Notes: generated from the letters alone by a model not told the origin. Shown: positions 7,185 to 59,209, numbered from the stretch's first letter. The stretch is DNA of 64,000 nt from an uncultured Candidatus Peribacteria bacterium (GCA_964563595.1 CAZLWR010000001.1:9857-73856), one strand, 5' to 3'. Program-made: numbers and translations.

Positions 7185-8906
7185 ATGCCAAAAAGTAAGA
7201 TTTTACCAACTGATTTTGTTCTACATACGCGAGATGATGTAAGGCTCTATTATGATCAGGTTATTTCTCAACCAATCAATAGCGTTGATGATCTTAAGAG
7301 GTTTATAGATAATACATGCGATCTAGATGATTATCTTTCTGAAGATTACGCTCGAAGATATATCAAACAATCTTGTAATACTTTGGATCAAGACCTCAAG
7401 AAGCATTATGAGGAATTTGTTGATGCAGTTCAACCTGATCGATCAAAGACTTCAGATCTTATTAATAAGCTCATAGTCGCAAGTCCTTATACAAGTGAGT
7501 TGGAATGACCTTATGCTATATTGCTGAGATGAATAAAGAGGTCAATTGAGGTTTATAGAGAGGAAAATGTTCCCTTGGAGCAAGAAGTCGATAAGATTGG
7601 ACGTGCCTATTCAGAACTTGTTTCGAAAATGACTATAGAGCACAATGGTGAAGAACTGACCATGAAACAAGCATCTAAGTTCTTGAAGGAAAAAGACAGG
7701 AATTTGAGAAAAGTAATATGGGATAAAATGGTGACTAGGAAAGCTCAGGATTATGATGCTATCGATGCCATTCTGGACAAGTTAATTTCTCTTAGAACAA
7801 AAATGGCTCAAAATGCTTGATTTACTAATTTTGCAGATTTTAAGCACTTTGCTTTACAAAGATTCGATTATACTTTGGATGACATATATGCCTTCCATCA
7901 ATCAATCTATGAGATTATTTCTCCCTTGGCAAAAAGTATTACTGAACATAGAAGGAAAGTATTGTGACATGAGCTTAAGCCATATGATTTTGCTGTGAGT
8001 ATTTTTGATAAAAGCAGTAACGAATGTTATAAAGACAGCTCTGATCTTGTAGAAAAAATAGCAAGCTCGCTGAATAGCACATTCCAATGATTCGGTGACT
8101 TCATAAAAAAGCTAAGCACTTTAGGACAGCTTGATTTGACCACCAGGAAAGGTAAGGGACCCGGTGGTTATAACTATCCCTTGAGTACATCCGATAGCTC
8201 ATTCATTTTTATGAATGCAGTAAACGATAGTTATGGAATGTTTACTATGTTGCACGAAGCGTGACACGCACTTCATCACCATTATACCTATTGAATTGAG
8301 CCCTCGGCTTCTAGGCATCCTTGATCTGAGGTTTGTGAAATTGCTTCTATGGCTCAAGAATTGCTAAGTCTTGATAAATTGGAGAACTTTTTTGAAAATA
8401 AACAAGACTATACTATCGCTAGTATGGAAAAATTGGAAGATGATATCCTTACATTTCCCTGGATTGCTAAAATTGACTTATTTCAACAACGACTCTATAA
8501 AAATCCAAATCACACCCATGAAGAAAGAAATCATAAACGATGAGAATTAGCTCAGCAATATGCTAATAGTAGTGGCTTGGGTCAATATGATTCTTGGATA
8601 GGAGATTATGAAAATGCTTTATTATACCGTTGGCAGGGACAAATGCATATTTTTGATTTACCAATGTATTACATTGAGTACGCTATAGCAGGCTTAGCGG
8701 CAATTGCTATGTGGAAGAATTATTTGGAAATCCCTGAACAATGAATACAAAACTATATAAACTTACTTAAAGTAGGTAATACAAAAACAATGCCGGAGAT
8801 ATTTGAGACATGAGGTATCAAGTTTGATTTCTCTAGAGAGTATGTTCAAGAGCTTATGAATTTTATGCATACTAAATTGGAAGAATATTATAATAAGTTG
8901 TGATAA
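7185..8906 (+). CDS. pepF: M3-family oligoendopeptidase F
   Basis: The zinc motif HEA-G-HALHH has its Gly encoded by TGA at 8262..8264. The C-terminal part carries FQQ-W-LYKNP..EERNHK-W-G-EL with CGA at the Trp positions. All fragments (7173.., 7575.., 8349..) are in one frame. Confidence 0.85.
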
Positions 8907-8940
8907 TTTCAGATTATATTATATATAACATAAGCAGACG

Positions 8941-9492
8941 ATGACAGATTTACAGCATATTAAGAACTTTTGTATTATAGCTCACATTGATCATGGTAAA
9001 TCTACCTTGGCAGACAGATTGATGGAGATCACGGGTACGATAAAAAAGTCTGACCATGGTCAAGTTTTAGACAAGCTGGAGTTAGAACAGGAAAGAGGAA
9101 TCACGATCAAACTCGCACCTGTTAGAATGAATCGAAAGGGCTATCAACTCAATCTCATTGATACTCCGTGACATGTGGATTTCCAGTATGAGGTAAGTAG
9201 ATCTTTGGCGGCAGTGGAGGGTGCAATATTATTGGTGGATGCGAGTCAGGGTATCCAAGCACAGACCTTGAGCGTACTTTATATGGCTATGGAGTATGGC
9301 CTAGAAATCATCCCTGTTTTGAATAAAATAGACCTACCTGCTGCAAGACCCGAAATGGTTGGTAAAGAAATAGAGGGATTGTTGTGAGTGCCCTATGAAG
9401 ATATCCTTGCAGTGAGTGGTAAAACTGGCCAAAATGTCGAACAACTTCTCGATTTAATTATTGCTAAGATACCCAGTCCAAGACTAGATTAA
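8941..9492 (+). CDS. lepA: LepA/EF4 GTPase-domain-only fragment (183 aa; truncated or pseudogene remnant)
   Basis: [27 protein letters not shown] (TGA 9169..9171), NKIDLP and IAKIPSP are present, then TAA at 9490..9492. The roughly 420 aa that normally follow are absent, and the next gene starts at 9519. Confidence 0.8.
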
Positions 9493-9518
9493 TCAATGCA
9501 GATTCAGATTGTTTCGAT

Positions 9519-10211
9519 ATGCCTATGCTTGAGTTTGTTACATCTCTTACAAAAAAGAAATTATTGCCATGGCTGGTATTGATGGGAGGGTTTACCGTAT
9601 TATTTATTTGGTGAGCAAATAGTGCGGTCAATAGACAGGCTACGAGTTATATGGTAGAGTTTCATGAAGTAGTAGGGCAGTATGATGCGGCAATTATTTT
9701 GGGTGCAAAAGTATACGCCAATGGTGCTCTTGGTGCTGTTGTTCGTGATAGAGCCGATATGGCTATCAAATTGTATAAGGCCGGTAAGGTAAAAAAACTG
9801 CTAGCAAGTGCTGACAATAGTAATTACAACTATAATGAAACAAAGGCTATCTATATCTATCTTATAGATAATGGAGTAACGAAGAACGACATCTTTTTGG
9901 ATTTTGCCGGATTTGACACCTATGATAGTATGTATAGAGCTAAACATAATTTTCTCATTAAAACGTTGTTGATCCCCAACCATCTCAATTACTGTCCCAG
10001 GAGTTTATATCTAGCTCGTCATTTAGGTATAGATGCCTGGTGTGTTACTATGCCAAAATGGTTCAAACCCAAGACGATCAGCGGCTATTACAGAGAGAGT
10101 TTTGCAAAAGTAAAAGCCCGGATCGATATTATGTTGTGATCCAAGGCTTATTTTGCTTGAGAAGATACCTATCCTATTGATAGTACTGGTAACGCAGTAA
10201 TGTTCTATTAG
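9519..10211 (+). CDS. SanA/YdcF-like DUF218 membrane protein
   Basis: It has an N-terminal TM (LLPWLVLMGGFTVLFIW), then DAAIILGAKVY.NG....V.RDRAD.AIKLYKAGKV.KLL.S.D and GFDTYDS.YRA. Confidence 0.7.
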
Positions 10212-15656: not shown

Positions 15657-15937
15657 AGAGCATTAATGATAATAATTAAAGCTAAGACACATCGTGTACG
15701 CTATTAAGAACTATGGTTCATAGATCAAGATAGCACACAGGCTGTCTTGGTGCTATCATTATAATTAAGTATTTTATAATATCAAATAATATTTATTGAC
15801 TTGGAATAACGCAGATATGCTTGAAACCATGAGGGGAAAAATTATGAATTATAACATTTTCGAATTCTTCCCAAATCATATATAACTATATGTATGATAA
15901 TTCTGAAACTATAACATTTATTGTTATGATTGTGTTT

Positions 15938-16011
15938 CGGGAACTAGCTCAGATGGCTAGAGCGCGCGGTTTGGGACCGCGAGGTCGCGAGTTCGAGTCC
16001 CGCGTTCCCGA
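15938..16011 (+). tRNA. tRNA-Pro (anticodon TGG)
   Basis: Cloverleaf drawn by hand: acceptor CGGGAAC/GTTCCCG, anticodon stem CGCGG/CCGCG with loop TTTGGGA, and T-loop TTCGAGT. No CCA is encoded. Confidence 0.85.
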
Positions 16012-17698: not shown

Positions 17699-18256
17699 AT
17701 GAACAAGAAATTATTTTTCGGAACCAGTGCCGTATTGAGTCTTTTAGCAACAGCCATCTTGTCCTTCCAGGTGTACGAACGTACTCATCTGGATGTGCCC
17801 AATCAGCACGTCATGGAGCTGGATGGAATTGAAGCCGTCGAATCAGCGTTTTCCGCCCAGAAGCCGATCTTTCTGAAGTTCGGTGCGGACTTCTGTCCGC
17901 CATGCCGGGCTATGGAGGCTAATATGAAGGCCGTCGCACCCTGGCACTGCGGGGACGTCATCCTCGCTACGGTTGATATCGTCGAACAACCAGAGCTGGC
18001 TTATGTTCTGGCTGACGAAATCGGGCTGGAACTGAATGCCATTCCGAAGCTCGTGGTGCTTTCGCCGGGCCAGGATTCGGCTTATGCCCCTGCGCTCATT
18101 CAAGGCGGCTTTGTTCGTTCGATTCCGGGCCTGGAATGGGAACTGCTGAAACTGGGGCACTTTTCGCCTCTGTATTATCTCTTATCGGCAGTGGTACTGT
18201 TTGGAGTCGGCATCTTCTGCATGTTCCGCTTCAGAAGCCTATCGGTAGTGGCATAG
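17699..18256 (+). CDS. membrane-anchored thioredoxin-like protein (CPPC active site), compositionally foreign
   Basis: This is an intact 185-aa ORF under any code (no TGA, no CGA), with FGADFCPPCRAME and N- and C-terminal hydrophobic segments. GC-rich third positions (ctg, gcc, ggc, ccg) contrast sharply with the flanks. Confidence 0.8.
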   Translation: MNKKLFFGTSAVLSLLATAILSFQVYERTHLDVPNQHVMELDGIEAVESAFSAQKPIFLKFGADFCPPCRAMEANMKAVAPWHCGDVILATVDIVEQPELAYVLADEIGLELNAIPKLVVLSPGQDSAYAPALIQGGFVRSIPGLEWELLKLGHFSPLYYLLSAVVLFGVGIFCMFRFRSLSVVA

Positions 18257-30094: not shown

Positions 30095-30111
30095 ACTATA
30101 AGAAAATCCAT

Positions 30112-30183
30112 GGTTCCATCGTTCAATGGATAGGACATGCCCCTGCGAAGGGCATAATGCAGGTTCGATTCCCGCTGGGACCA
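30112..30183 (+). tRNA. tRNA-Arg (anticodon GCG)
   Basis: Acceptor GGTTCCA/TGGGACC, D-arm GTTC-AATGGATA-GGAC (A20 present), anticodon stem TGCCC/GGGCA with loop CTGCGAA, 4-nt variable region, and T-loop TTCGATT. The minus-strand ORF 29954..30184 is its shadow. Confidence 0.8.
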
Positions 30184-30233
30184 TTTTGCTACTACATTAA
30201 CATTCCAATATATAGCTTTATTATCGTCTCAGT

Positions 30234-37728: not shown

Positions 37729-40700
37729 CTACTTCTTGATACTAAAGTTAATAATGCCTTCTTCTACGTCGCATTCTCCAGTATAATCTGGATTCTCAAT
37801 TGATCATGCGATGGTACCAAGTGTTTCTCTGGCGATGTAATCTCCATATTGAGATAAAATACTTTCAGCTTCAAAGCCAGATATAGTTAAACTAATTCTG
37901 TCGGAAACATCATAGCCAGTATTTTTTCTGGCTTCTTGGATGGATCTGATAAGTTCTCTTACGTATCCTTCCAGTTTTAACTCTGGTGTTATAGTTGTAT
38001 CTAGCATAAGAACTAGATTTCAAGAAGTTATAATATCTCCCGTAAGATCTCCTTTTTCGTATCTCATTTCGTATTCATCTGGCTGGAGTATAATGTCTGA
38101 CACTTTGACTGTATTGTCTGACAAAAGTTCAAACTCCCCGGATTTTGCAAGAGTATTTATTTCTGCAAATCTTGAGCCGAGCTTCTTACCTAACAACTTT
38201 GCATTTGGTATACAGATTCTATTTATTTGATTATCTAGTTTTGCATCTACGATGAGCTCTTTAACGTTTAACTCTTCCAAAATAGTAGTTTCGTATTTTG
38301 GATTGATTTGCTTATTAATTCTGAGTGATTGAAGGGGTTGCTTTACTTTGATTTTAAGCGAACCTCTCAGTGAAAGACCAAGCTCCACAATTGTTTTAGT
38401 TAAATCCATATCTTGTAGTAATGTAGTATCAACCAATGTGTTAATCTTACTCGAGTCAGTTCGATAATCCAAATGTACCGACTCTTTGTTTGTAAGATTT
38501 CTATAGATATACTCTGACAAGAAAGGCATAAAAGGTGCCAGTACTTTGCATAATTCTATAAGAACTACATATAATACATCATAACCAGACATCTTATCAC
38601 TATCATTTTCAGATTTCCAAAATCTGCGTCTATTGCGGCGTATATACCAATTAGTGAGATCATCCATAAAACTAAATAATGGGGCGGTTGCTTTTTGAAT
38701 ATTATAGGCTTCCATTTGTTTATTTACTTCCGTGATGAGTTCTGCTGTTTTTCAGATTATTCGTTTATCAAGATCGTTTTTAAATTCATAACCTACGAAA
38801 TCACTAATACTGTGCTTAGTTGGAGCGAACTTGTCTATATTTGCATAGGTAGTGAAAAATGAGAAGCTATTCCACAAAGGAAGATTCACTTTTCTGATTA
38901 TTTCTTTTCGTCCTTCTTCATAAAAATTCATATCACCTCAAACGAGTATAGGACTAGATGCAAAGTACATCCTGAGGGAGTCAGAACCATGTGTCTTCAT
39001 ACTTTCTTCCGGATCTGGATAGTTACCATAGGATTTGGACATTTTACGACCATCATTTCCTGCGAGCACACCCGTACAAACAACATTGGTAAAAGCAGGG
39101 TTATCAAAGAGCATGACTCACAATGCATGCATAAAGAAAAATCGACATCTCACTTGACCTAGATACTCTGCAACATAATCTGCAGGAAAGGATTGTTCAA
39201 ACTTTTCTTTATTTTCAAATGGATAATGTACTTGAGCATAAGGCATAGATCCGGATTCGAGCCATGGATCCAATACTTGCGTTATTCTCGTAAACTTTTC
39301 ACCTTCACGTATTCACCAAATTGCATCAATATAAGGACGATGAAGATCAAATTCTTTATTCTCTAAAGTATTTCGGTATTTCTCTTTTCAATTTAAAACT
39401 CTCTTTTCGAGTATTTTACTTCCTGTTTGATCCAATGCAAATATATCCTCTCTGCTGCCGCATACTATTATTTTCCCGCTTTCTGCTACCCAAACTGGCA
39501 TTGGAGTTGCCCAATATCTAGTACGACTAATACATCGGTCAGGAGCAGATTCCATGGATTTTAAAAATCTACCATGCTTGAGATGCTCTGGTACTCGATT
39601 TACTTTTTCATTTTCAGCGAACAATCTTTCTTTGATTGATTTGATGTCAATAAACCAGTTGTCTTGCGTTTTGTAGATTAATGGTACTCCTGTTCTTGGG
39701 CACATAGCAACCGAGTGAGTAATAGACTCTTTCTTGAAAAGTAATCACTTCTCTTTGAGTTTGTCCATCACAAGATCATTCGCATCGCGGTAGTATACTC
39801 CTTTCATATCTGCTATTTCCTCGGTATAGTTCCCTTGTTCGTCCAGGGCAGCAGATTGAGTTAAGTCATGTCTTTTTCCTGTTTGAAAGTCATCTTCTCC
39901 AAATTCAGGGGAGGTATGTACGATACCTGTTCCATCGCTGTCAGTCACATAATCAGCAAGGTATACTTTGTGATCATTAGTGCTTTGTCAGACATAGTAA
40001 TCAAATGGTGCTTGATAACTTAATCACTGAAGTTCGGCCCCTTTAGATGTATATATAATCACATATTGAGAAGGATCTTTATAAAACTTAGAAATAAGGT
40101 TTTCTGCTAGTATGAAATACTCCTGTAAGACTAGATCAAATAGCTGTAGGTATACTATATCTTTGTTCACTACGAGTGCCATATTTGCTGGTATAGTTCG
40201 TGGTGTCGTAGTTCGTGCTAAGAAGGAAAATGGGTACTTATCTCAATTACCTTGCAACGCTCAATGTTCTACTATTTGTTTGTAGTGGTAAAGATCTTTG
40301 AAGGTTCTTATCTCTTCTTCACTATCTATGATAGCATTATTTATGGTGAAATTTCGTCATAATTCGTTTTCACTTGTTCATATATATGTATACCCATATG
40401 CAGTATGCTTATCTGACTCTAATAACTGAATCTCTCAATGTATTATCTCCGCTTCATAAAACTCTAGATATGCTTTGTGTGAATTTCTAATATCTTTGTG
40501 GGCACACACTCTTTTTCAAACCTTTACGCTCACTCATAATTCTTCCTGTAACTCTCTTTCTAGGGCTTGAGTCGCAGTTTCTCATAAATCTACTTTACCG
40601 CCGGGAAACTGCCAATTTCCATGTTTTTGATTATAGACCGATAGTATTCCACCTTTACTATCTTTGATTATAGCCTGTGCATAGCATATAAATCCGTCTT

Positions 40701-41394
40701 GCGTGGCTTCATATTGATTTCAATCTGCTAAGGCAATGTCTTTTCAGATTAGTGGAAATTTCACAGTGATAGCCGGATCAGCAATATCTGCATAACTATT
40801 ATCCAATGCTACTTCATAGTTACTAATTGGCGTATTGAGTTTGGTAGAGTATAATGATACTCTCTTGCCTTCATAAATCATACCCTTATCTCGTAGAGAC
40901 TTGAATACTCGCATAACAGATTCCATGTAATCATTGTCCATGGTTTTGTAGGCGTTTTTGAAGTCCACCCATCTTCCGATATGATCTACATATCGCTCCC
41001 ATTGGTCACTGACATTTTTGGTGTAATCATAACATGCTTCAATAAACTCTTTAATACCATGTGCTTCAATTTCTTTGTTAGACTTATAGCCGAGTTTATC
41101 CTGTATTTTTTGTTCTACATAAATTCCATGGCAATCCCATCCTCGTACTCTTTCTATTCTTTTCCCTTTTTGCGTCCAGAATCTTGTTACGATATCCTTT
41201 ACTACGCTGCTCAATAGGCTTCCATAATGTGGTAAACCAGTAATGAATGGTGGTCCATCGTAAAATCTATAGGCATTCTCTTCGGATCTTGTTTCAATAG
41301 ACTTTTCGAAAATTTGATTATCTTTCCAATATTGTAAGATTTCTTCTTCTAACTGGAAGAAATTTGGAGAACTAGGAAGTTTTGGGAAAGACAT
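37729..41394 (-). CDS. ileS: isoleucyl-tRNA synthetase (type 2 / eukaryote-like) carrying an internal Nudix-domain insertion
   Basis: 1,221 aa in one frame. Motifs seen: [37 protein letters not shown] (Trp=CGA at 40213..40215 and 40198..40200), [17 protein letters not shown] (CGA 39535..39537), and GRKMSKS. Confidence 0.92.
40260..40735 (-). other. Nudix hydrolase domain inserted in IleRS between the ..ITVKFPLI.. strand and WTTTPWT
   Basis: The canonical Nudix box GX5EX7REUXEEXGU is read in frame: G-KVDL(G)[15 protein letters not shown](G)V at complement(40531..40599). It is preceded by [31 protein letters not shown]. Confidence 0.8.
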
Positions 41395-41579: not shown

Positions 41580-44500
41580 ATGTTTCAACGAAGTAAAAAA
41601 AAGATTATACTCTTTATAGTACTTATTGTTTTCAGTGTTGATACAGTACTATCTGGTACTATTTTTTGATGGAATAAAGCACGAGCAGCAGAAACAAACT
41701 TTACTGATATTATCAGCGTTTTCATTGATAAAAATATTGCTGCCAGTGCAGGAAGTGACCTTGATTGGTTTACGAAACAGTATTTGTGAAGAAATTACGA
41801 CAATGCTCAGGTAATGGTATTTCAAATTGACCCATCGGGAGTCTCTCCAGCGGATATGGCTAAGATCAATCAAAATCTCTATTTGGAATGAAAAAAATGA
41901 GTTCCTAGTAGGTTGATCGGGACCGTTCTTATTGGTGATTTGAAATTACCGGTGGTCAATAAAGACTGATTTGTTTTTTCAACTATCTATCCGTTAGTAG
42001 ACTTTGAAAAACCTAAATATTATTACGATAAGAATTCAGATTATTTTCTTTATCAGTCCGAAGGCAATAGCCAACCTGAAATACGGCATAGTGTGATTAA
42101 CTTTGCGAATGATACGAGTAAGTACAAAATATATCTAGATAAACTGAAACAGTACGCTGCGGATCCGCAGTCGTGGGTGAAACAAGGTGTATGGTATGAT
42201 GATATCATCCATCAAAAACAAACTCTCAACGCTGATAATATTTCTAAATACGTTAACAATGCTGTGTTTAGCGAAGACGTAATGTACAATAGATATACCA
42301 ACTTGATGGTTGATATCTTCCAGGCCTTGCACAATAGTGGAGTAGTAGATACTTTGGGTGACTATGATGATCAGGTTATTAATAATTTGGAAGATCCTTA
42401 TTACAATGATCCAGAATTTCAGGAAGTGAAAGATCAATATAAAGGTCAGATAGAAAAGTTTTGGAATTTGATAAAATCACTAAAATCATTGGTAGGTTCG
42501 AATAATACCGACTCTTCAGATCCAGAGCCTTCAAATTCTGCCTTGGGCACATTGCCCAATAGTAAGTTTATCAATACCTTATTTATTCAAAAGGTGGTTG
42601 ACGGATTTATGAAAGATTATGTAGAGTTGTATGGGACCCTCTATTTTGATACCAAAGAGAAAAGGTTGCAGCTTGGTGGAAGATATGTTGCTGGACAAAC
42701 AGGTACTGCAGTAGATGATCATATTACGATGACTAGTAGATGGGATGAAGTCAGTAAGCAATTGTTAGCTGATGCGAATACGAAGCTGGAAAAAGCACTT
42801 GATGATAAAATTGAGCAGGAGGGATATAGTATGAATGTCTTGGTTCCGACTAGAGTGGATATCAACGGTTGTAACAATGTAGAAACAAAAGACTATGATG
42901 CGAAGAAATCGTATGAGGTGTACTATTTTGGTAGGCCGGCTGAGGAAATTGATAACGCTGAGGATTTTGGTATTTACCGTGGTACCTTCAATAATATTAG
43001 ATCACTTGTAAAGCTTGATGGTTTCGACTATACCAGTTGGATGGATGCCCAAGAGAATCAATCAATTGGTGCAACCAGGGGAGAGAATGCAAGGGAAGTG
43101 GAAGCACATAGAGGCTATGATTTCTCATTGATAGAATACGATCAACAGGAATTTGAAAGGGTAAAGAGTATTATGCCTTTTAGTAAACATAAGAAAAAAA
43201 GAAAAAACATTGATAAGTTTATCAACTATTACCGAGCAGGATATACGCCACTCAATATTGACCCTAACAGTGAAGATGTGAGACTGAACCAAACAAGAAT
43301 GGACTATACACAGTTGTGGAATCCTTGGAAGAATAGAACATTGGGCGGACCTGTATTTGATATAGCTTGAAGTAGAATCACTACTCCTGATAGGAAAATT
43401 AATTTCAGTTATGGATCGGATGATGATGAAGACGAAGATGATGGAGATGAGGATACGCCGGATATTGTTACTAAGTCTTATTCAGGTTATTCTGATAGTT
43501 ATTTAGGAGCAGACTTTTTTGGAACTACCTTGCAGGTTGCCAGAAATAATGGTAAGTGGATAAAAGTTCAGAAAAGAAAAGTAAGAAAAAATGGTAAGCC
43601 TAAGAAAAATCGAGAGGATGTTAGACTATTTGCTTTGGGTGGATTATCTAGCAATGATGGTTTATTCCTCAAAAATCCTAATGATGACGGCTATATTACG
43701 ATAAATAGTTGTGCGAGCAATAACCGAAATCGTTATTTTAATTCAGTTGATAGTAGATATTTCCATAAATCACCGACTTTAGATGAGCTCTACGGTAAGT
43801 TCACCAATCTCAATAAGGTTAAAATGGATATCAGCTTCGGCTGTGACTCTCCTGATAATGGCAATTATGCTGAGGGTCAGCAGTGCCAAGGAATAGAGTT
43901 TAGACGAAGTGATTTCTTACCGGGCTTTAATGATAATTCCGCCTCTCCCTGGTATTTATCTAAGGATGATTATTTTATAACCTGAGGCAAGATTTATTTC
44001 AATAGCACTGCGAAGTTTTACTTTGCTGGTCAAGATATTGATTTGAGTAACGTAATAGGTGAACTTACTGGTGGAAAAATAAAATTTCAATATGATGGTA
44101 GAAATATAGCACTAACGTATGCGAATGCTACTTTTGATTGCGAAGAGCTGGAGACCGACGTAGAAGAAGGTCTTGCTTGTGTGGGTTTGAGTTTCGAGAT
44201 AGATCATAGGAAGCACTTTATAGATTATAAATACTTTGACTATGATACTACTGGTCAGGTTATTTCATTTTATCCCTGAGCAAAAATTACTGTCATGAGC
44301 AAGGATTATCCCTTGTGAGGCATGGTGGTCCAAGTCAATGGTGATAAGTGAGAGTTCTCTGGCAAACAACTTCAAATAGGTGGTATGAATGAATTCACCC
44401 TCGAGAGACCGGTTGATTCTCCTAGGTATGTCAATTTCCAGGGAATAGGAGGGGATAAGTTGACTTGGGTCTATCCGAATATGTGGAAAGTGGCGGTCTA

Positions 44501-47500
44501 TAAAGAAGTAGATGGTAAAAGAGTACTTAAAACCATAGAGGAGATACAGGATGCTTTAAAACAATATCTGCGTGATAAAGTAAAAGATTACAATAATCAG
44601 CTTCAAGACCAAAGAAATAAGAGATTTGATTACTATAATGGTAACGAGTGAGGAGCTGCAAGAAGAAACCGAATTGATAAATTTGATAATTATGATACGA
44701 GTATTTCGCCTTTAGTGCATGAAGATAATACACAGCTTAATCTGAGATCTTACAAGTTGTTACCTGAAAATTTCTTGATTGATGGCTTGGCGACGACACG
44801 AGAAGGAGAAGCAATCAGCAGCAACGATATGCTTAAGGTTATTGCTCAGCAGCTCTATCATCAAAATGTGATGCGGTTGCAACTGCCAATTGACACCAGT
44901 AAAAAAGTCTTGGATGAAGTGAGTTTGATCCAATCGTTTGCCGATATTAATCATAAATCCAGGGAACTTTATTCCGAATACTTAACTGAGCAACCAAAAG
45001 ATGCTTTTGAGAATGTTCGTGCATATGATTTAGATTTACCTTATTATAATCTTAGTGGTTACGAAGCTGGATATATCAATAGTGATGGAGCGGACTATGT
45101 GCAGTTTCAAACAGTACCGCCACTAGTGAAGCTTATCCAAAAACAAAAAGCAAAAGATACTCCTCCAAAACCAAAGACGGCTGAAGATCTAGACACCAGC
45201 AGATGTGCGAATCTTATACCTGCAAGTTATGTGGTGTCCCTATCAAAACGACCTGCGGCATTTAAGTGCTGGCTTTCTGATATCACTTCTTCAAAACTTT
45301 TTGATGTAAAGATTTCTTTTGCTGGCTCTGCAAATGGTGTCTTTTGATTGGGTAGTGATGAAAACAGTTCTGGACGACTGGAAGATGCTTGGCAGCAAGG
45401 TACTGATCAGTTTAAAACCGAGCGGAAAAACTATTCTCAAGGACGAAGGGCTACGGTGAAATGAGAAGATACGGGTATCGCTCCTGATGAAAGAAGAGAA
45501 TTGGCGAAACAATTAGATAATCTGATCATCAAACCTACTAGTTTTTCTCCTGCTTTGACTGCGTGAGTGAGACTAGCGATTTCCACCAAAGAGGATTTGT
45601 GATCTTATACTATTCAGATTTCTAGTACGGGTGCCAACTGTTTGAAATATGTAAATGGGTCTAACTTGTGCCAATCACCGCAATCTTTACAAATAGCATG
45701 ACTGTATTCCAGCAATTATGATTTTACTTTCACAAAGTTGTTTGAAGGGGTTGGCGATATGAATATCCAAGTTAAAATTTGTAAATCTAAATGTGTTTAT
45801 AAAAACATAGTAATTGCTGTCCAGCCATCTGAAATTAGTAAATTAAAGTTTGTACACCCTATGGGTGATCAGATCTATCCGGTGGCGAGAGGTGTGCAAC
45901 TGCCTATGATGACCAATGCTTTTGATGCATATGGTAATAGCATTGGAACTACCTTATATGATTTTATTGTAAAGACTTCTCATAAAGGGTGACTCATCTA
46001 TGATAATGAACTTACTCAACAATTTCAAATCAGTTCATTCACCGATGCAGGGTTTCTACTAGATACGATTTCTGTGAATGGAAATAAAGAGACAATAACT
46101 ATTGCTCCAAATCCTTCTTTTGTCGCTCTCAATCCTTCATTACCAAAACAAGAACTTACGTTAGATATCGTGGATCCGAATGTGAGTATCATTACTAGTT
46201 CTACCGTAGTTCAGTTACCAGAAAGTAGTAGCGATTTAGAAAAGACAAGTGATGGCGTCTCTTACACAGATATTTCTAAACTGACTAAGATAAGAGTGGT
46301 AGTTAATAATGGTCAAAAGTTATATGCTGTTGTCTCAGCAAAGTCTCTATGAGGTAAGTTTATTGCTGGTATCAAAGGTACAAAAAAAATAGCTAAACCG
46401 AACAATCAATATGCTACTGTGGAGACATTCATTCCCGTAGAGGAGGTGCTTTCTACTGGAGGTTTTGTAGAGTTTTATCTATATCCCACTATGAAAGCAG
46501 GAGAAGATAGCCTCCAGATTCAAGTTGGTCAATCAAGTAAAAATATTACCCTTGAGGTAAAACCGGCAAGTCCCAAAAAGACCAGCATCAATATTGATAC
46601 GGATGTAATGGATTTGCAATGAAAGGTTGATGGTACTATAGCAGTCACTGATATCTGGTGAAATATATTACCAACTTCTGTGAATGTATTATTATGAGCA
46701 TATGGCAATATTACTGTTGACGGAGTAAATGGTTCTGGCAGTGTTATTGCTATTGCTTGAGAAAAGCAAATTACTGTTCGCCCGGTATATCCCTGAGGAC
46801 AGGGTTACTTATTTGTTACTATACAATGAGTCCCATTTGATCAACAATTTCCTGATTATCGTAGTATACTTGTGCAAAATAGAGCACGACCTATAGAAGA
46901 TATAAATGTAGCTTACCTCAATCTTTACGGCTCAGATCGAGCGAACCAAGTTGATAAGCAAACAAATAAGATAATCTGACCAGCAGTTCTTACGGACAGT
47001 AATAAAACTTTATCGCTTACTACTCAGTATGGAGATCCATCTCAAATCTACAAAACATTGTTCGCAGTAGATAAGAAATGACAGATCAAACAATGATGAA
47101 CAGAGAGTATTGAACTCGCTTTGTCTAATGAACAACTTGGATATCATACTGAACAGTATGGGTTCTTACCTATCGGTCAAGCCAGTAGTTTTGGTATGCA
47201 AGTAGTTTCAAGTTTGGATGGAGGGCTTGCCGGAAATGCTTGGGCTGTTAAGGTTTGAGAAATCAGTTCTACCATACAATCAATTGTGGTTGTAGGCAAG
47301 CAGTTGCGTGTCAATGATCAGATTATTATAGATTTGCAAAATGCTGTATGGGATACCAAGGTAAGTATAAAGTATGCAGGAAATATAGGAAACTATACCA
47401 AGCGAAATATATATTATGGTAATGACATTGTTGCTCAGTTTATTCAAACATATGCTTTGGATACTACCTATACTGATATGCGAAGATCTCTTGTGGATCC

Positions 47501-50500
47501 TACAAGGTATACAGTGGCGGATGTTTTGGTATCTCAATACCATGATCAAGGAATCGGTATACTGGATAATGCTGCTAACTTGAGCGACGAAGATAAAAGC
47601 GTTCCTAGTATCCAACATAGTGAGGATAGTAAATATAATATTGGATTTGGTGACACCTTTAAACCGCTTACACAGTTTGCTCAAGGTAAATCAGTGGGTG
47701 AGTCTTCTGTCGCCTTTGCAAGTGAGTTTGTTCTCAATCTGTGAGATCCGACCTACCGTATTTATGAAAAAAATAAACTAGTAGATCATACAAATTATGA
47801 TGGCTGACTTGGTGTTACTGCTTTCGCTGATCCCGATAAAATTATCCAACAGGTTATGGACATAAATCGAGATAAGCAGGGCGATAGGGATTTATTGGTA
47901 GTATACGCAGACGGTTCGGTAAGGCTATTGATATCAAAAGGTAACAAACAATATGTTAAAGTATGAGACTTGGCATATATACAAGACGGCATCCAAAAAC
48001 TCTATGTAGGTGATGGTGATGGTGACGGTTATCAGGATCTCTTTGTGCATACGATGGCCAATCAGTTGAGATTCTATAAAAATTATGAGTGAGAAAGAAT
48101 TGATGTAGATGGTTATCCTATTTGTCTAGACATAGAGGGTGGGGATAAAAATCTAAATGGTGTCTGGCAATGGTTTCTTACAGATCCAAACAATGATAAA
48201 GTTACCGATATTGTTATAAATGATAAAAATAATCAGATCAAATTATTCTTGGGATGAGGATGATCTACTTTATTTAATTTATGATTTGGTTGAGGAAATT
48301 ATATATCCAAAGATAAGTATGCTTGCGACCCGGATTGGAAATCCAGACAGGAAGGTAAAATTGCTACTATCAAGTCATTCGCCCCAAAGCTTGATGGCAC
48401 GCAAATCACTGACGAATCTTTGGTGCATCGAAATGGTCTTAGCACGTCAGACACAGGAACTATTAATCCTAATGTGGATTCTGCAGATGACCTGGAAGAT
48501 CCTGATAGGATTAATGTCGACATACAATTGGGTAATTCTAAAAAACCAAAAGATGTTATAAATCTCGTGAAGAGTCAGCTTATGTCTACTTTTAATCCGC
48601 AAACATGGATTACGGAATATACAAATTCATTAGATAACACCATTACTCTTGATGCTGCCTATAAGCCAGTATATGAAACAATTCCTGGCGAGACCGTTTA
48701 CAAACAATTGCAGTCGTTACTTACCACCGATAAATTGGCTTCCTATAAAACCTTTACTGACTTAAATGGTGGTAAATTAGAAGATGGCGATATAGTGAAA
48801 ATAAATATTACTATCCAATGAAAGTGAGCAGCTAAGGCAACTTATATTGAGAAACTCTCTGGTCCGCGGGAAATTCCCGTCAGTGGTACCCAGCAGGTAT
48901 GATTTTTCCAAGGTAACTTGAATTCAGATTATACTTTCATTTTGCAGCCTTGACCGAGTTATGTGTTTATGATTGATAATATAAACGTATGAGCAACAAC
49001 AAACTTTGGTTACCATGTAGTATATAAATCACAACAAATAGTAACTATTCAGCATGGAGAGTGATTTACTGATGTCAATGGAGTAGGTGGATCTATTGGT
49101 AAAAACCTTATACCTCATGCTTATGCCCAATCGGATAATACGCCGCCTTGGCTTGAGATAACACCTTTGGACGGATGTGCCAAGTTTAAATGGAAGATTA
49201 CTACTCCCAATATATGACCCATTTTATCAAATTGGTTTGTAGAACAAAAGATTGACCTAGAACAACAGATAAAAGATAAACAGAAACAAGACGAAGAGAA
49301 ATATACCGAAGGCATGAGTGATACGTTTTCTGATCTGGTAAGTGATACAAAGGATGAAATAAATAGTGAGCTAAAAGATACGTATCTGAGAGAATCCCGG
49401 AGACAAAAAGGTTTATTGAAAGACGACCCCGCACTCAAAGCTATTGAACAATTTGCTTATACTACTGAAGCACTCAGCAATCTCAGTATCAATAATAATC
49501 TGAAAATAGGAGGTTTTGGTGCGGATATTGATCAGTTGTTGGATAATAAAATTGGTGAGCTTACAAAGGGACTTTGTGAAGGATTTAAAGTTGGGCAAAA
49601 AAACTGTTCAGGTATACCTATTTTGAGTAGTCTTCCGCGAAATATGGCTTTCTTGTCGCCTGGAGATATGCAGGTTATGGGATGTAAAATTTGGAAAGAT
49701 AAGGGTATACCATTGTTGCGGTTCCCCGCAACCTTACAAACCCCAGTCGGTCCGGTGCCTTTCATAGGACCTATTGGCCAAAAATGACCGGGAGATGGAT
49801 TCTATCGATTTGGTGGATGAACTTATACGTCTTTGATCAGAATGTATGTCTCACCCACTTTAACAGCAAAGCTGGGAATTGGTATCTGTTTCGGTCCTTA
49901 TACAGCCGGTATTAAATTACCAAAACCCTTTAAGGATATTATGGGCAATTGTATCGTATTTGCAGTAGATCCAGGACTTGGTAAATGTGAGCAGGTGAAT
50001 GAATGATGACCAAGTGACTATAGTTCTTATGTTATCAATAAGGAAACAAAAGAACTAGATGATACCAATACTTGTAATGATGACATCACTGTTAAGAATT
50101 CTCCACTGAAGTTAGTAGAGACCTCAGTAAATACTGCTGATAACTGGCTTGATTCTGTTCAATGAGAGCATGGGTTGGTAATAAAACTTGGATGACACGC
50201 CAACCTCACCAACTACAATAGTATTGCTCTCAGCGATTTTGTTACTAAGGTAAGACTTGAGGGTGGCAATCCTTTAGATTTACAGATAAAGGGAGCAAAT
50301 GATAAAGGTTTAGTGAGCTGTCTTATCAATCAGTTCGCTGATAACCAGATTAGATATATCATCAATAATCTGACTAGTATGGATATCAATATTGTCTTAC
50401 CGGATTTGAGAGGCTTGGGAAGACAAATAGTTGGAGTAGCAAATGTATTCAATAACAATGCTTGGCAAGAAAAGCAAAGCAACGAAGCGTTTTCTGATTA

Positions 50501-53500
50501 TGCTTCTCAATATGAAAAAACTCTCAAACATAATACTGGTAGTCTCAAACAATTTGTAACAGCATGACAGAGTAAACAAAAACTTACCAAAAGACTCAAT
50601 ACGGTTCTATCAAATCCTTTTGAGAAATTAGCATTATTTTTCGCTGATAGTGAATTAGTAAGGATCAGTAGTAGAGATGTGTTGGTAGAAATACCTTGGA
50701 TATATACGGAGGACATAGTTACTCTCAGATGAGTATATAGAGCTTGGCGAGAGAGAAATCAGCCGGTCCTCAAAGAACGACAGGACTTTGCTATTGATTT
50801 TGTGAAACAATGTGAGGCGAAAACGGACGATTTCGAGAGACAAAATTGTATGATAAGAGCCAACAAAATTATACAACTCAATAATCAACTAGGCCAATTT
50901 GAAAAATCTATCAGAAGGAATCTTCAGGTATTGGATGAATATGGTGAATTTCCAAGTAAGGTATATGACCTATTGCATGGTTATGACACTTATATTTATG
51001 ATCTATTTAATTTTGCTTATGGTACTATTGATGCAGTAACGAGCTGGCTATCGAAGCTTGCAAGAGGATTTGAGGCTTGGGTAGACTTTATTGTATCCTT
51101 GATAGGTATTCTTAAAACCCGGCAGGTATTGATTGATTTTTCAGTCAACTGGAAAGAGAAATGCAGCAAATGTACGGTAGATAATTATTCGGCTTATAGT
51201 TGCTCCTTTAGTAAGTTTTGTCCCAAATTACCGGTATTTAATATACCTCCATTCAAAATACCAGATATTACAATTGATCTGAGCAATATAGATTTACGTA
51301 CTGATATTGTATTACCGAAGTTTAGGTTCCAGCCTAAAAGAATCTGATTATTTGATAATATTAAACAATTTGGTTTGCCTGATGTGCCGTATCCTACGCA
51401 AATTGGATGGCTAGATAACGAAATCAACCTTAAGCTACCTTCTATCCCGCTGATACCATCACCGCCAGATTTGGATGCAATTAGCTTACCAAGCTTTATT
51501 CCTCAAATCAAATTCAAAGGTCCTACACTGCCACCAGCACCGAAGATTCCTAAGATAGCCCCAGAACTTGGCTTAGCAATTGATATCGCTGATTTCATTG
51601 GAAGAATATATTGTTTGGTAAAGTGAGGTATTGGATTGGTCGGAGAAGCAGGGCTCAAGTCAAGGATTGAACAAATGACTCAAAGAACTTGGGCAGTAGA
51701 ACCATTCGATAGTCTCAAGTTACTTATACCAAATGCTCCTTTGCAAACTCTCAATCTCTTCAAACCCCAAAGGGACGAGGGAGGCAGTTTAGATTTCAAA
51801 CTGGAAGCCTTTGCGGATGTTAAAATGTACTTTGATGGAGTGTATGGATTATTTGATGGAATAGCCGAAAGTATCAATACTCAAACAAGGAAGGTGCAAA
51901 GAACGAGTACTGAGGTACCTGCTTTACAGACAGTAGGTGAATTTATAGACAAGGCTAGTTCAACATTCATTGATGCTACTGATAAAGCAACAAACGAGAG
52001 TATTCAGACCAATATTAATATTAACCCTTTTGGTTACGTAGAAACATCAGATTATCATTCAATCAATAGTAAGATCAAATGAGATCTTGCTTATTTCACT
52101 GAAAAAGATGATCAGCCATTTGCACAGGGAAGAAAATTGCTTGCTGCTGATATTGTTAGATCCTATGATTTAGATACCACTGTGAGAATAAATACAAAAG
52201 GTATGGATGAAATAAAAACTCAAGTTAGTGAGGTATTAAATCAAGAGTTGAAAGAAAATAGTGAAGTGAAGAATTGGATACAACAGGATTGGGACGGTTG
52301 GCTTGATCACATCATAAGTACACAGTATGTAAGCGACGATAAAACACTGTATTCCTTAAAAACAAACCTTCTGGATATAGATCAACAGACTTTGGACTAT
52401 GTTGGTAATTACGATATCGCTAAAGAGTATGTTGCTACCGAAAAAACAGTGATAGATGGGTATGTCAACGGTCTTGCAAATTCGGATTATGAAACTTTAG
52501 GTATGCAAAAATCAGATTATGATAGATCAGCAGAATATTTGAATACTCTGAAACAGAACGTTGATCTGGCACGAAACAATGTAAATGCTCCCAAACAAGA
52601 AATTGATTCACAAATGCCAGCGAATGTGGATGTTAATTGATGAGAATGAAAGCAACAAATCAATTGTACCTTGTGTAATAAAGAACCTGGTGATCCTGTG
52701 CTACTTTCTCAACAAGGCGGTAACACTAATTCACCTACGAGCAATACCTTTGCACTTGGAGGAGTAGATGATCCAACTAGATATCTCAATGGATACTTTG
52801 TGAAAGGAGATGACGATAATTACCACAATGTTATTACCAATATGGATAAGTGAGAACAACTTAGTAAGAAGAGTTTCGAGAAGGATATTACCAATGATGG
52901 GTTGCATGAAGTTGTCTTGCGGGATGAACACAATGTGTATATCAAATATGCAGATAAAATTTCAAATACTTCTAACCCAAAACAAGGGAAGCATGTTGCA
53001 AACGTTGTTACTATCGTAATAGATTCTGTTGCTGATATGGAGAGCCAAGTAGATGCTTACGGCTATTATGGCAGTCGAGCTGGTAAGACAAAAATTCGAT
53101 CTCAGGAGCGGATGCCTAAGGAATGGGAAGTAGCATGACAAGCTTATCAGTCTATGACTTATACGGTTTCCAATGAAATTGAGTCTGCGGGTGACGGCGT
53201 AGTGGGATATGCAGTGAGATATACTGATACTATTACGAAGACGCTTAGTAAAGATGCCGATTATGATTATATGATTATTTTGGATACCGCATTGCAGGGC
53301 AAACCACTTAGCGATATTGATATTGATGGCGTCCATTTGCAAGCCGATGAGGTGCAGATTATATATGTTGATCCGGGTCAGCAAAGTATCAGTGCTGTTT
53401 TGAGCAATTTACCTAGGAGATGGTACTATAGTCAGATCACTAAGTTATCGAGTAAACAACAGGTAAGTAAATTATTCGGATTTATTCCTTTCGGATCAAA

Positions 53501-54569
53501 AGATACTCTGACAAGAATTTATAAATCCTCTCCGCGATCCAATAATGAAACTGCGGGCATGCAGATCATTGCTGATACGAGTGCTCCTTACGCTGATGTG
53601 AAATTGGTTCGTACTCAAAAACCACTTGTTGTTGCTCAAGGAGATAGTATGTTTGGCACGATAAAAACGTATTACACGCTTAGCGGTAGTTGGTATGATG
53701 ACAGTAAGGTAATTAAAAATCGAGTATACAGCGGTAACGTACTTATTGCATCCGGTGATCATGATCTTATATTCGTATCTGGCATCTATTCTGATAAGCC
53801 AGTTAAACTTACTTACCAATTGGTGGGACAGGATAGTGCTGGTAACATAGGGCAGAAAACCGTAGAAGTAAATCTATGATTGCCAAAGATTACCGTCGAT
53901 AATGTTGATACAAATACTATATGACAATCTGATGTACTCTCGAGTTTGAACACTGATATAGATAAGTGAACTGTGCAATTTGTGAGGGTGAGAAATGGAG
54001 TAGAATCTGTTTTGGAATCCGTATTTGGTAAGAAGAAATTATTTGATACCATCACAGATCAATTAGTAGTTACTTGAGGTAAATTTGGGTTTAAACAAGA
54101 TATAGGCTTTTACGATGCAGATGGTAAGTATCTCAATGTAAGCCTAACTCCTGCTGGTCAGATAGTAAATACTAATCCTGCAATAAAAGTTACTGTGGAT
54201 TTCGTGGATAATGTTCCTAAGATTGTATTATCAAAAGATAATCAGGAATTATATCGTATCTACCTTAAACCAAAAGCATTTGATAGCGCTAAAGGTATCA
54301 CTATTTTAAATGGGGCATACGACACGTTGAGAATGCCAGTAAGTACGCCTGCGCTTGGTCAGTTTGCCGGTGGTGTATGTATCAAACCAAAGAACGGTGT
54401 ATGTGAGATTATGATTGCTCCGTCAGGCTATATATTTATTTCTAAACCATATCATAGATTATATAGAGGATACTATAAGTTTGAATCTGGGAAAGTAGTC
54501 TATGGCATACAAAAAGGTAAAGAAACGGTAGCTGAAGTAAGAGTAGAAGTAGAACCAGTCAAAAACTAA
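41580..54569 (+). CDS. giant signal-anchored surface protein (4,329 aa), putative adhesin / host-interaction protein
   Basis: All 20-plus standard-code fragments between 42093 and 54569 are in frame 0. I read every inter-fragment gap and found only TGA, never TAA/TAG. The start is ATG 41580 (an upstream in-frame TAA lies at 41469) and the N-terminus is MFQ-W-SKKKIILFIVLIVFSVDTVLSG. It ends at TAA 54567..54569. Confidence 0.85.
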
Positions 54570-56661: not shown

Positions 56662-58089
56662 TTATTGTATTGTTTCCCAGTGTACTCTTGTTTGCTCCAT
56701 GGTGTCTCTATTTCTGATTGTTACGGTACCGTCTTCGAGTGATTGATGATCAATACAGACACAATACGGCGTACCGACTTCATCTTGTCTACGGTATCTT
56801 TTACCAATATTCCCACCGGCATCATATTCACATTTGTAAGTCTTTTTCAGTTTATCATATATTTTTCTACCTAATTCTACCATGTTTTCATCTTTTTCTA
56901 TCAAAGGTAGTATAGCGTATTTGATTGGTGCAATCTCGAAAGGAAACCTGACTACTACTCTTGTTTTATCATCACTGCCTTCTCCCTGCGAAGCAATGGT
57001 TTCTTCATCGTAAAACTCTAGCATACTTGCCATCATACAACGACCTACTCCCATAGATGTTTCTACGCACCATGGTATATATCTCTGACCTGTTTTTGGG
57101 TCAGTATATTGCATACTTGTTTTTGAATATTCTTGATGTTGCTTAAGATCAAAATCAGTACGATTGTGAATGCCTTGCACTTCTCCAAATCACCATGGGA
57201 AGGCAAACTCGATATCCGTAGCTGCTGCTGCATAGTGAGCGAGTTTATCGTGATCTTTATATCTTAAATGTTCTGGAGATATACCAATAACCTGAGTCCA
57301 AAAATCCATACTTACCTTTTTCCGCTCATCAAATACCTTCATAGCGTTATCGGGATCGGCTGGTACAAAGTATTCAATTTCCATTTGTTCGAATTCTCTT
57401 GTTCTAAACAAAAATTGACCAGGAGTAATTTCATTGCGGAATGCTTTACCTATTTGAGCCAGACCAAAAGGTATCCTATTCCTCGTAGTGTCGCATACAT
57501 TTCTAAAATCAGTAAATAAACTCTGGCAAGTTTCTGGTCTCATATATACTTTGTTTGATTCGTCTGCTACGGGTCCAAGGGTAGTATTAAGCATAAGATT
57601 GAAATTTCTGCATTCTGTCCATTCTGGCTTTTCTTTTAGTCCCTTTGGTCGTATTTCTTCTTCAACAATAAATCTTCTCATGTTTTCATTTCCTCGGGAT
57701 TCCGGAGATCAGTTGAAAAATTCATATTCGCTTGGATGCTTTTTATATGAGTCCTTTTGTCTGCCTTCGATATACTCTTCGATAAGTTTATCTGCTCTAA
57801 ATCTTTGTCCGGTTTTTTTGTCGTCAATAAGTGCATCACTAAATCATCCTACATGACCGCTTGCGATCCAGGTGGTAGGGTGGGCGATTATAGCAGTATC
57901 CATCAAGATAACATCATCACGCTCTTGCGTATAATATTTTACCCAAAGATCAGTAATATTTTTTCTCAACAATGCTCCATATGGTCCATAATCCCATGCA
58001 TTTGCTAATCAACCATATATTTCACTATTGGGATATACAAAACCCTTTCTCTTGGCTCGTGATACGATTGTTTCTAGTGGGAAAGACAT
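56662..58089 (-). CDS. glyQS: glycyl-tRNA synthetase (homodimeric class II, GlyQS type)
   Basis: Motifs seen: [88 protein letters not shown], and RYIPWCVETSMGVGR. Confidence 0.92.
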
Positions 58090-58188
58090 GTGTAATGAGG
58101 CATTTACTGGATTAAAAAATGTCACTCTATGGTTGATAGAGGACGGTATTTGTAATGAATTAATGATCCAATGCAAACAAATCCTTGT

Positions 58189-58626
58189 TTATCCATCGAA
58201 TTTTGCTTTTCTGTTGGCGAGCGTTTCGCCTCTTTTGCGTTTGTTGTTTAATCTTTTTTCTTTTTCTTTTTTTGGTATCTTGGTTTCTTTTCTTTCTTTG
58301 GGTTCTATGAGACATAGTTCGATCATCTGTTTGAGTTTGCGAACGGCAGTGGCGAGATTGGTGATTTTACTTCTTGTTTCTTGGCATACGATAGTCAGTT
58401 TCCCTTCTGCATCAATTTTATTACGATACTTTTCTTGTATTCTTTGTTTAACTCCCTCAGGGAGTTTCGTATTGCTCAGATTCCAATAGAGTTGTACTCT
58501 GGACTCTGTTTTGTTGACATGTTGTCAGCCCGGTCAAGAACTCCTCGAATACTGCGTTTCCACTTCTTCTCTTACGATGCTATCAAGCACTGCTTGATCA
58601 AGTACTGGGTATTTTGTTTTGCTCAT
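58189..58626 (-). CDS. arfB: alternative ribosome-rescue factor ArfB (peptidyl-tRNA hydrolase, GGQ domain + basic tail)
   Basis: RSS-G-PG-G-QHVNKTESRV has the second Gly of GGQ encoded by TGA (58525..58527). The C-terminal tail is Lys/Arg-rich. Confidence 0.85.
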
Positions 58627-58747
58627 ACACGAAGTATAGCGGATATTGTGTTTTTTTCAAGTTTTCTGGTGATTTTGTGCATATGTATCCCAATAGATAT
58701 TGTATCCTGCTGGAAAATCTGTAGTATCAGATTATATTTATTTTTTT

Positions 58748-59209
58748 ATGGGTGATCCGCTTATGCTTCAAGAGGATTTGTATTTTCATGGCGTGAAGGC
58801 CCTGATTACAAACAACGATAGAAAGATTTTATTGTTGCAAGTAAATACGATCAGTCTTCGCAATCGAAGTGGTGATCCTTATTGGGATATGCCTTGAGGA
58901 AGAGTTTGCCGTGGAATGAGTATTGAAGATACCTTGCAAAGAGAAGTGAACGAAGAAATGTGAGCACATGATATCACTATAGAACATTACATAGGTACTG
59001 CTTTGTCACCTATCAGGATACCCTATGGAGATACTGATTATGGTTTATTTTTATCGGTATACGATTGTTCTATCTCCGACTGAGATGTTGTGTTGAGTGA
59101 TGAACATCAGGCTTTTGAACGGTTTGACATAGAAGATGCATTACACTTATTATCAGTAAAGTATCCATCCTCATTTTTGGATTTGTTAAGGTGATATTTT
59201 CAGAAATAA
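58748..59209 (+). CDS. Nudix-family hydrolase with a degenerate Nudix box
   Basis: WDMP-G-GRVCRGMSIEDTLQREVNEEM-G-A has REVNEEMG intact, but Met replaces the first box Glu. The C-terminal DEHQAFE-W-FD has Trp=CGG (59120..59122). Confidence 0.75.

Follow-up and report, generated by a model that had tools for sequence, protein, structure and literature searches.

The stretch of DNA analysed here, called the window, comprises 64,000 nucleotides from an uncultured Candidatus Peribacteria bacterium (GCA_964563595.1 CAZLWR010000001.1:9857-73856). The question it raises is the meaning of the codons CGA and CGG (together CGR), which an earlier note on the sequence proposed to have passed from arginine to tryptophan on top of a shift in UGA's meaning from stop codon to glycine. 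The window has a GC content of 36% and is 93% coding when only TAA and TAG are taken as stops. Its open reading frames (ORFs) contain 19,799 codons, among them 95 CGA, 24 CGG, 74 CGT, 28 CGC, 393 AGA, 101 AGG, 160 TGG and 354 in-frame TGA codons, and AGA is the commonest Arg codon. The 119 CGR codons are distributed over 30 of the 53 ORFs and, counted as Trp codons, make up roughly 43% of a total of 279. The nearest relatives of the isoleucyl-tRNA synthetase (IleRS) and glycyl-tRNA synthetase (GlyRS), as found by homologue searches, bear the name Candidatus Absconditabacterales or that of candidate division SR1, and the IleRS is at most 64% identical to that of any GTDB species representative. 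These comparisons place the source organism within the Absconditabacterales (candidate division SR1) clade, as a rather distant member.

CGA codons in the isoleucyl-tRNA synthetase

The IleRS gene served as the main test bed. The gene and its most informative CGA codons are listed below; the counts refer to 70 standard-code IleRS sequences, and the relatives are those described after the list.

37729..41394, minus strand: IleRS gene, 1221 aa, 14 in-frame CGA codons
40213..40215, minus strand: CGA, first W of the WTTTPWT motif (aa 394); W in 69/70; TGG or CGA in relatives
40198..40200, minus strand: CGA, second W of the WTTTPWT motif (aa 399); W in 69/70; TGG, CGA and CGG in relatives
39535..39537, minus strand: CGA, W of the D-W-x-ISR motif (aa 620); W in 70/70; CGA, CGG and TGG in relatives
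40909-40911, minus strand: CGA, aa 162; W in 68-70/70
39595-39597, minus strand: CGA, aa 600; W in 68-70/70
39142-39144, minus strand: CGA, aa 751; W in 68-70/70
38761-38763, minus strand: CGA, aa 878; W in 68-70/70

IleRS loci were sampled from one genome per GTDB species. The nine closest relatives, all with in-frame TGA (43-64% amino acid identity, several of them named Absconditabacterales or Absconditabacteria) were aligned with the window protein and with the 70 standard-code sequences, which came from Saccharibacteria, spirochaetes, Chloroflexota and others. In the window protein and in those of the nine relatives, CGA and CGG positions were replaced by X ahead of alignment, so the alignment was not pulled towards W or R.

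Seven CGA codons (aa 162, 394, 399, 600, 620, 751 and 878) stand in columns where 68-70 of the 70 standard-code sequences have W. Three of these, at aa 394, 399 and 620, had been placed by the earlier note at invariant motif tryptophans, a placement borne out both by the alignment (69/70, 69/70 and 70/70) and by W in 3/3 PDB chains. The remaining CGA codons are more varied. The column at aa 84 has W in 44 and F in 15 of the 70, and that at aa 168 has Y in 41 and W in 23; aa 829 lies in a V/I/L column, aa 134 and 978 in variable columns, and aa 347 and 674 within clade-specific insertions that are not alignable. Among the 12 alignable CGA columns, eight are W-majority, one is Y/W, one is V/I/L, two are variable and none is R. 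W-majority columns account for 23 of 855 alignable columns, which gives a binomial p of 1.2e-10 for finding at least eight of 12 CGA codons in such columns. Solved IleRS structures, when aligned, likewise favour W at CGA.

Other codons in the same alignment served as controls. CGT and CGC columns are R-majority in six of seven cases, the seventh being a W/K bimodal column in which all relatives likewise have CGY or AGA, and AGA and AGG columns are R-majority in 15 of 23. Conserved arginines were said in the earlier note to use other codons, as they do in the ISR-T-R segment of IleRS, which is encoded with CGT and AGA and whose CGT (aa 624) lies in a column that is R in 70/70. TGG was said to be retained for Trp, and 11 of the 13 IleRS TGG columns are indeed W-majority. 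When the window and the nine relatives are pooled, columns with at least 90% W hold 133 TGG, 33 CGA and 8 CGG codons and no AGA or CGT, and columns with at least 90% R hold 83 AGA, 48 CGT, 9 AGG and 5 CGC codons and no CGA or CGG. On this comparative footing, CGU, CGC, AGA and AGG are still Arg codons.

A Codetta-style mini-screen of all codons, made on conserved IleRS and ClpB columns, found robust deviations for CGA (W in 7/8) and TGA (G in 10/11 conserved columns); no further reassignment emerged from those columns. The relatives pair TGA with TGA, GGA and GGT. As judged from these columns and pairings, UGA is Gly in the window, which constitutes a code 25 background.

The glycine meaning of UGA bears on whether the code has changed at all. 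CGG and TGG differ by a single C/T transition, and C-to-U editing of the first codon base would turn CGG into UGG in the RNA and leave the code as it was, as happens in plant organelles, which edit CGG to UGG. From CGA, the same editing would produce UGA, a Gly codon here, yet pooled CGA columns are 67% W and 1% G; site-specific editing would moreover be required at all 119 codons in 30 of the 53 ORFs, and we know of no C-to-U mRNA editing system in bacteria of the candidate phyla radiation (CPR). RNA editing was rejected because it would turn CGA into a Gly codon, and its probability is negligible.

The window's IleRS is also unusual in its domain layout. An insertion of about 155 aa (aa ~230-385; 40240-40710, minus strand) separates the N-terminal catalytic half from the CP1 editing domain; it matches MutT/Nudix hydrolases (4dyw_A, E 5e-9) and has a perfect Nudix box. 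The same insertion, its box intact, occurs in the IleRS of the relatives L002, L003, L004 and L064, while that of L001 carries an insert comparable in length. The IleRS of L007, L010 and L012 lack the insertion, as do almost all of the 70 standard-code sequences. A literature search yielded no publication describing a Nudix domain within IleRS.

CGA and CGG in other genes

The earlier note cited nine codons in all, seven CGA and two CGG, and its coordinates, strands, frames and peptide contexts are correct throughout. The six that lie outside IleRS are listed here; CGA and CGG were masked as X before these sites, too, were aligned with homologues.

34534..34536, plus strand: CGA in MiaA, T-W-(F/L)-R motif; W in P. 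aeruginosa MiaA, TGG in L001
11002..11004, minus strand: CGA in endonuclease III (Nth), after RLG; PDB Nth proteins have F, F and W
8490..8492, plus strand: CGA in the M3 oligoendopeptidase, within FQQ-x-LYKNP; PDB homologues have F, Y and A
8538..8540, plus strand: CGA in the M3 oligoendopeptidase, within ERNHK-x-G; close PDB homologues have W (3/3)
57322..57324, minus strand: CGG in GlyRS, aa 256; ambiguous in PDB chains (W, W, Y, E)
59120..59122, plus strand: CGG after the Nudix fold of a Nudix hydrolase (gene about 58748-59209); W in 3/3 PDB alignments covering the site

The assignment of the MiaA codon to the Trp of the TWFR motif stands, with W in P. aeruginosa MiaA, the sole PDB alignment extending to the site, and TGG in L001, the closest relative. 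The broader description of the cited sites as essentially invariant Trp holds for the IleRS motif codons and for position 8538 of the PepF-like protein, but not for its position 8490 (F/Y/A) or for Nth 11002 (F/F/W). According to the alignments, these two positions are aromatic or hydrophobic rather than invariant W, and they still speak against Arg. The protein labelled PepF in the earlier note belongs to the M3 'not PepF' subfamily TIGR02289.

Both CGG sites look like Trp positions, as had been proposed. The GlyRS codon is ambiguous against PDB chains, but four relatives have CGA, CGG, CGA and TGG there, and the column in 120 homologues consists of 90 W and 30 R with no third residue. A column of W and R only is the pattern expected if TGG and CGR alternate and CGR is mistranslated as R. 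At the Nudix hydrolase codon, every PDB alignment that reaches the site has W.

The presence of residues other than Trp in distant homologues would suit a different reassignment, in which CGA and CGG encode another aromatic or hydrophobic residue such as Phe, Tyr or Leu. Homologues have F, Y, L or V at several CGR sites: besides Nth 11002 and position 8490, one MiaA CGA is F in 4/4 chains, IleRS aa 829 is V/I/L and GlyRS aa 11 is L. The conserved columns of the IleRS alignment speak clearly for Trp instead. Where a column is at least 80% conserved, CGR from the window or its nine relatives occurs 41 times at W and three times in one V column. It occurs zero times in conserved columns of F, Y, L, G, R or K, although 20 F, 16 Y and 20 L columns were available. 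TGG is also the dominant partner codon in relatives. A generic aromatic meaning was rejected, given the absence of CGR from conserved F and Y columns, and can be given almost no credence.

Codon-for-codon comparison extends the test to the rest of the window. Masked window ORFs were set against syntenic DNA from code-25 relatives, one codon at a time. The 164 pairs involving a window CGA have TGG 84 times, CGA 37 times, CGG seven times, TAT eight times and TTC or TTT eight times in the relatives, and the ten commonest partner codons include zero Arg codons. Window CGG, with 17 pairs, faces TGG 11 times, CGA four times, and TTT and GCA once each. Window AGA behaves as an Arg codon would (446 pairs: AGA 172, CGT 78, AAA 43, AGG 26), and window TGG faces TGG in 132 and CGA in 40 of 210 pairs. 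Counted by site outside IleRS, with additional relatives drawn from the GlyRS homologue search, 27 of 37 CGA sites pair only with TGG, CGA or CGG, nine with other codons that are mostly aromatic or hydrophobic, and one with an Arg codon; for CGG, 12 of 14 sites pair only with TGG, CGA or CGG, two with other codons and none with an Arg codon. An Arg codon in any relative is thus found at one of these 51 CGR sites.

Most of the CGG evidence comes from a single gene:

41580..54569, plus strand: giant ORF, 4329 aa, 26 CGA and 9 CGG codons (35 of the 119 CGR codons in the window)

Eight of its nine CGG codons pair only with TGG or CGA in L001, L011 or L163, and the ninth, at 45423, pairs with TGG and GCA. 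The ORF has about 47-56% identity to its counterparts in these three relatives.

As a stand-in for Codetta, 15 window proteins were scored against Pfam or NCBIfam profiles twice, with either W or R at every CGR codon. W gives the higher score for 11 of the 15 and the lower score for two. Scores in bits, with the gain of W over R, are as follows for all but those two:

M3 oligoendopeptidase (7185-8906, plus strand), TIGR02289: W 447.5, R 432.1 (+15.4); the curated cutoff of 442.35 bits is cleared only with CGA read as W
Serine hydroxymethyltransferase (26034..27350, minus strand; 3 CGA), Pfam SHMT: W 451.1, R 439.0 (+12.1)
MiaA, TIGR00174: W 237.9, R 227.0 (+10.9)
ACR_tran: +10.7
Nth, TIGR01083: W 196.6, R 187.2 (+9.4)
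GlyRS: +5.3
FtsH M41: +2.6
GTP_EFTU: +2.6
ClpB_D2: +0.9
Nudix (NCBIfam) and HxlR: match present only with W
Tryptophanyl-tRNA synthetase (TrpRS) and FeS_assembly_P: about 0

These scores and pairings also bear on standard decoding, in which CGA and CGG would be rare Arg codons and the lineage would have Arg where other bacteria have Trp. Arg is what translation table 25 assumes, and the public copy of this GlyRS shows R at each of its four CGR codons. Standard decoding would, however, need Arg at seven IleRS sites where 68-70 of 70 sequences have W, lowers the profile scores of 11 of 15 proteins, and would have relatives swap CGA and TGG freely at the same sites but never CGA and AGA or CGA and CGT. 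The earlier note had held that CGA and CGG codons aligned mainly to Arg columns would speak against reassignment, and zero CGR codons occur in conserved Arg columns. Plain Arg decoding is contradicted by the alignments and is very improbable.

tRNAs, TrpRS and known codes

ARAGORN and Rfam concur on a total of five tRNAs in the window, which are listed with the TrpRS gene.

30111..30184, plus strand: tRNA-Arg, anticodon GCG (ARAGORN; Rfam 30112-30183)
15937-16587, plus strand: cluster of tRNA-Pro(UGG), tRNA-Thr(UGU), tRNA-Phe(GAA) and tRNA-Ile(GAU), adjoining a ClpB-like gene
36355..37338, plus strand: TrpRS; Pfam tRNA-synt_1b 177.7 bits; 73% identical to the L001 orthologue

A canonical tRNA-Arg with anticodon ACG or UCG had been named in the earlier note as evidence that would count against reassignment. 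The sole CGN-box tRNA within the window is instead tRNA-Arg(GCG), which carries the tRNA-Arg identity set (G18-G19-A20, C35, G36, A73 and G1-C72) and is also found in the syntenic relative L001. Its G34 pairs only with U or C, so it decodes only CGU and CGC, with CGA and CGG left free. Very probably, as far as comparative evidence can tell, both CGA and CGG are Trp in this organism and UGA is Gly, with the CGN box split and CGU and CGC staying Arg. Of the two reassignments to Trp, that of CGA has the stronger support in these comparisons.

The reassignment is already known, its clade, codons and proposed tRNA mechanism having been published in 2021. The earlier note was right that Codetta predicts CGA and CGG as Trp in Absconditabacteria, a code in which UGA is also Gly (Shulgina and Eddy, eLife 2021; PMC8629427). 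CGA is Trp in 10/10 species in that work, and CGG is Trp in four, undetermined ('?') in five and Arg in one; GC contents of the Absconditabacterales range from 0.26 to 0.38, with 0.29-0.38 given for these species (PMC8629427). In nearly all ten Absconditabacterales genomes, tRNA(ACG) is absent and tRNA(GCG) is present, along with one tRNA(UCG) and one tRNA(CCG); CPR bacteria lack the usual inosine-containing tRNA-Arg(ACG) (PMC8629427). The tRNAs have anticodons and identity elements that fit the new meaning, under a provisional rule by which a Trp acceptor has G73 and no A20 (PMC8629427). Later work treats CGA/CGG to Trp as documented (PMC13092985; bioRxiv 10.64898/2026.05.03.722492, 2026), and one of these sources counts seven documented bacterial code reassignments, in which every sense-to-sense case listed concerns an Arg codon (bioRxiv 10.64898/2026.05.03.722492).

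The window resembles the published Absconditabacteria code in its three codon meanings, its clade, its low GC (0.36), the presence of a tRNA-Arg(GCG), the dominance of AGA and the conserved-column evidence (PMC8629427). Its genome apparently lies outside the ten tabulated species, with no difference in kind. Usage per 10,000 codons in the window (CGA 48, CGG 12, UGG 81) falls at the high end of the values published so far (CGA 13-37, CGG 0.9-24, UGG 35-75), the window figures being counts of all ORF codons and the published ones of Pfam-aligned codons only (PMC8629427).

Two other codes share part of this pattern. NCBI table 25, used for SR1 and Gracilibacteria, likewise has UGA as Gly but keeps CGA and CGG as Arg; the window does not appear to follow plain table 25, as both codons align to Trp rather than Arg. 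In Anaerococcus and the RFN20 Bacilli ('Onthovivens'), a CGN codon has likewise moved to Trp in a low-GC background with a Trp-identity tRNA, but the change is confined to CGG, while CGA stays Arg through tRNA-Arg(ICG) and tRNA(UCG) is absent (PMC8629427; PMC13092985). The window has both CGR codons affected and GCG as its tRNA-Arg anticodon, and its alignments indicate that the code is not of the CGG-only kind, CGA having changed too.

Several points count against a Trp meaning for every CGR codon. Two of the 15 profile comparisons favour R, and one of these involves a thioredoxin-like ORF:

17657-18256, plus strand: thioredoxin-like membrane protein with CPPC; Thioredoxin (Pfam) W 29.4, R 32.7 (-3.3 bits)
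17906..17908, plus strand: CGG directly 3' of the CPPC codons; K in 4/5 and L in 1/5 PDB thioredoxins
CGG 31839, in TsaD: W minus R -1.9 bits (Pfam); L001 has TGG at this codon

The CGG at 17906 is the one basic-looking CGR site, and R fits it 3.3 bits better. CGA 44799, in the 4329-aa ORF, pairs with CGT in L011. No tRNA with anticodon ACG, UCG or CCG was found within the 64-kb window by ARAGORN or Rfam, and ARAGORN found tRNA(UCG) or tRNA(CCG) neither in the window nor in 26 loci of code-25 relatives, where the scan was run on IleRS loci (9) and GlyRS loci (16). A ClpB-based metagenome scan, which exploited the ClpB-like gene adjoining the window's tRNA cluster, returned almost only unrelated ClpB/ClpC loci and likewise gave no tRNA(UCG) or tRNA(CCG) in a code-25 contig. 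The support for Trp is comparative throughout, which leaves room for partial Arg/Trp ambiguity, and the searched literature contained no proteomic proof of Trp at CGA or CGG.

A rival scenario has CGA and CGG mostly as Trp with ambiguous or incomplete decoding; CGG in particular might be partly read as Arg, for instance by a residual tRNA-Arg or through mischarging of the CGR-reading tRNA by arginyl-tRNA synthetase (ArgRS), and some sites would then still accept or need Arg. The codon after CPPC, aligned to K in four of five PDB thioredoxins and scoring higher as R, would fit such decoding, as would the CGG calls of '?' in five of ten species and Arg in one, and the authors of that survey allow for ambiguity barring experiments (PMC8629427). 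The CGG sites of the window argue otherwise: 12 of 14 pair only with TGG, CGA or CGG and 0 of 14 with an Arg codon, the Nudix hydrolase CGG is at W in 3/3 alignments, and the IleRS of relatives has CGG eight times in W columns and zero times in R columns. The thioredoxin-like protein is itself an orphan, with no homologue but itself in a search of 5.8 billion proteins, and its match to thioredoxin is weak (26 bits), so its single column says little. The site at 17906 is uninformative and is the main reason for assigning ambiguous CGG decoding a small probability, which we put well below that of full reassignment to Trp.

Under full reassignment, CGU and CGC would remain Arg codons decoded by tRNA-Arg(GCG), and CGA and CGG would fall to one or two tRNAs bearing a UCG and/or CCG anticodon and Trp identity (G73, no A20), as suggested by the literature. 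TrpRS, and not ArgRS, would charge such a tRNA. A U34 anticodon would read CGA and CGG alike, in which case both codons would shift meaning together (PMC8629427). The evolutionary route suggested by the literature would run from AT pressure, through CGR codons becoming rare, to codon capture.

This scheme places a demand on TrpRS, which by our own reasoning would have to accept UCG and CCG, anticodons that share only C35 with the standard CCA. A partial precedent is translation table 4 of Mycoplasmatales and insect endosymbionts, in which UGA is Trp: the TrpRS of table-4 organisms accepts the non-CCA anticodon UCA, which makes acceptance of UCG and CCG plausible. C35 is kept in both systems. 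Table 4, however, converts a stop to a sense codon and alters anticodon position 34 only, whereas the window would have a changed sense codon and a change at position 36 as well (G for A). With some 43% of Trp codons being CGA or CGG, which would mark an advanced stage of capture, the lineage would depend on a TrpRS of this kind. A tentative and rather doubtful extension is that the TrpRS encoded at 36355-37338 might have evolved relaxed or altered anticodon recognition, accepting UCG and CCG besides CCA beyond the general tolerance of bacterial enzymes. If so, it would be a natural synthetase for studying how anticodon recognition is retargeted in sense-codon reassignment. A weaker form of the idea keeps CGG partly ambiguous between Arg and Trp.

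Annotation and neighbouring features

Sense-codon reassignments are very rare in free-living bacteria, and the support for CGA/CGG to Trp comes from computation alone; the window supplies a TrpRS gene for a direct biochemical test. The consequences for annotation are more immediate. Under table 25, 119 Trp residues in 30 of the 53 ORFs of this 64-kb window are written as Arg, and several of the mistranslated residues belong to catalytic motifs of IleRS. The public copy of GlyRS (56662-58089, minus strand) is wrong at eight positions, having R at four CGR codons and W at four UGA codons. W at UGA combined with R at CGR points to translation with table 4 instead of table 25.

Gene calling is affected by UGA as well. 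An out-of-frame ORF of 185 aa (58822-59379, plus strand) overlaps the real Nudix hydrolase gene, whose frame spans 58697-59209 on the plus strand, and beats it in a naive longest-ORF call; long spurious wrong-frame ORFs of this sort arise because UGA is no stop.

Two further ORFs have uncommon architectures. The first (8941-9492, plus strand; 183 aa) is LepA/EF4-like but consists of the GTP_EFTU domain only, and directly precedes a DUF218-like gene unrelated to it. Its shortness may be genuine and not the result of truncation, given that L064 has a 77%-identical match to the same 177 aa. The second (12153-12788, minus strand) fuses an HxlR-like winged-helix DNA-binding domain to about 110 aa of Lys/Ala/Val-rich repeats, which resemble the histone H1-like protein HC2. 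Its single CGG corresponds to Tyr in 3df8, the sole aligning PDB chain of the HxlR family.

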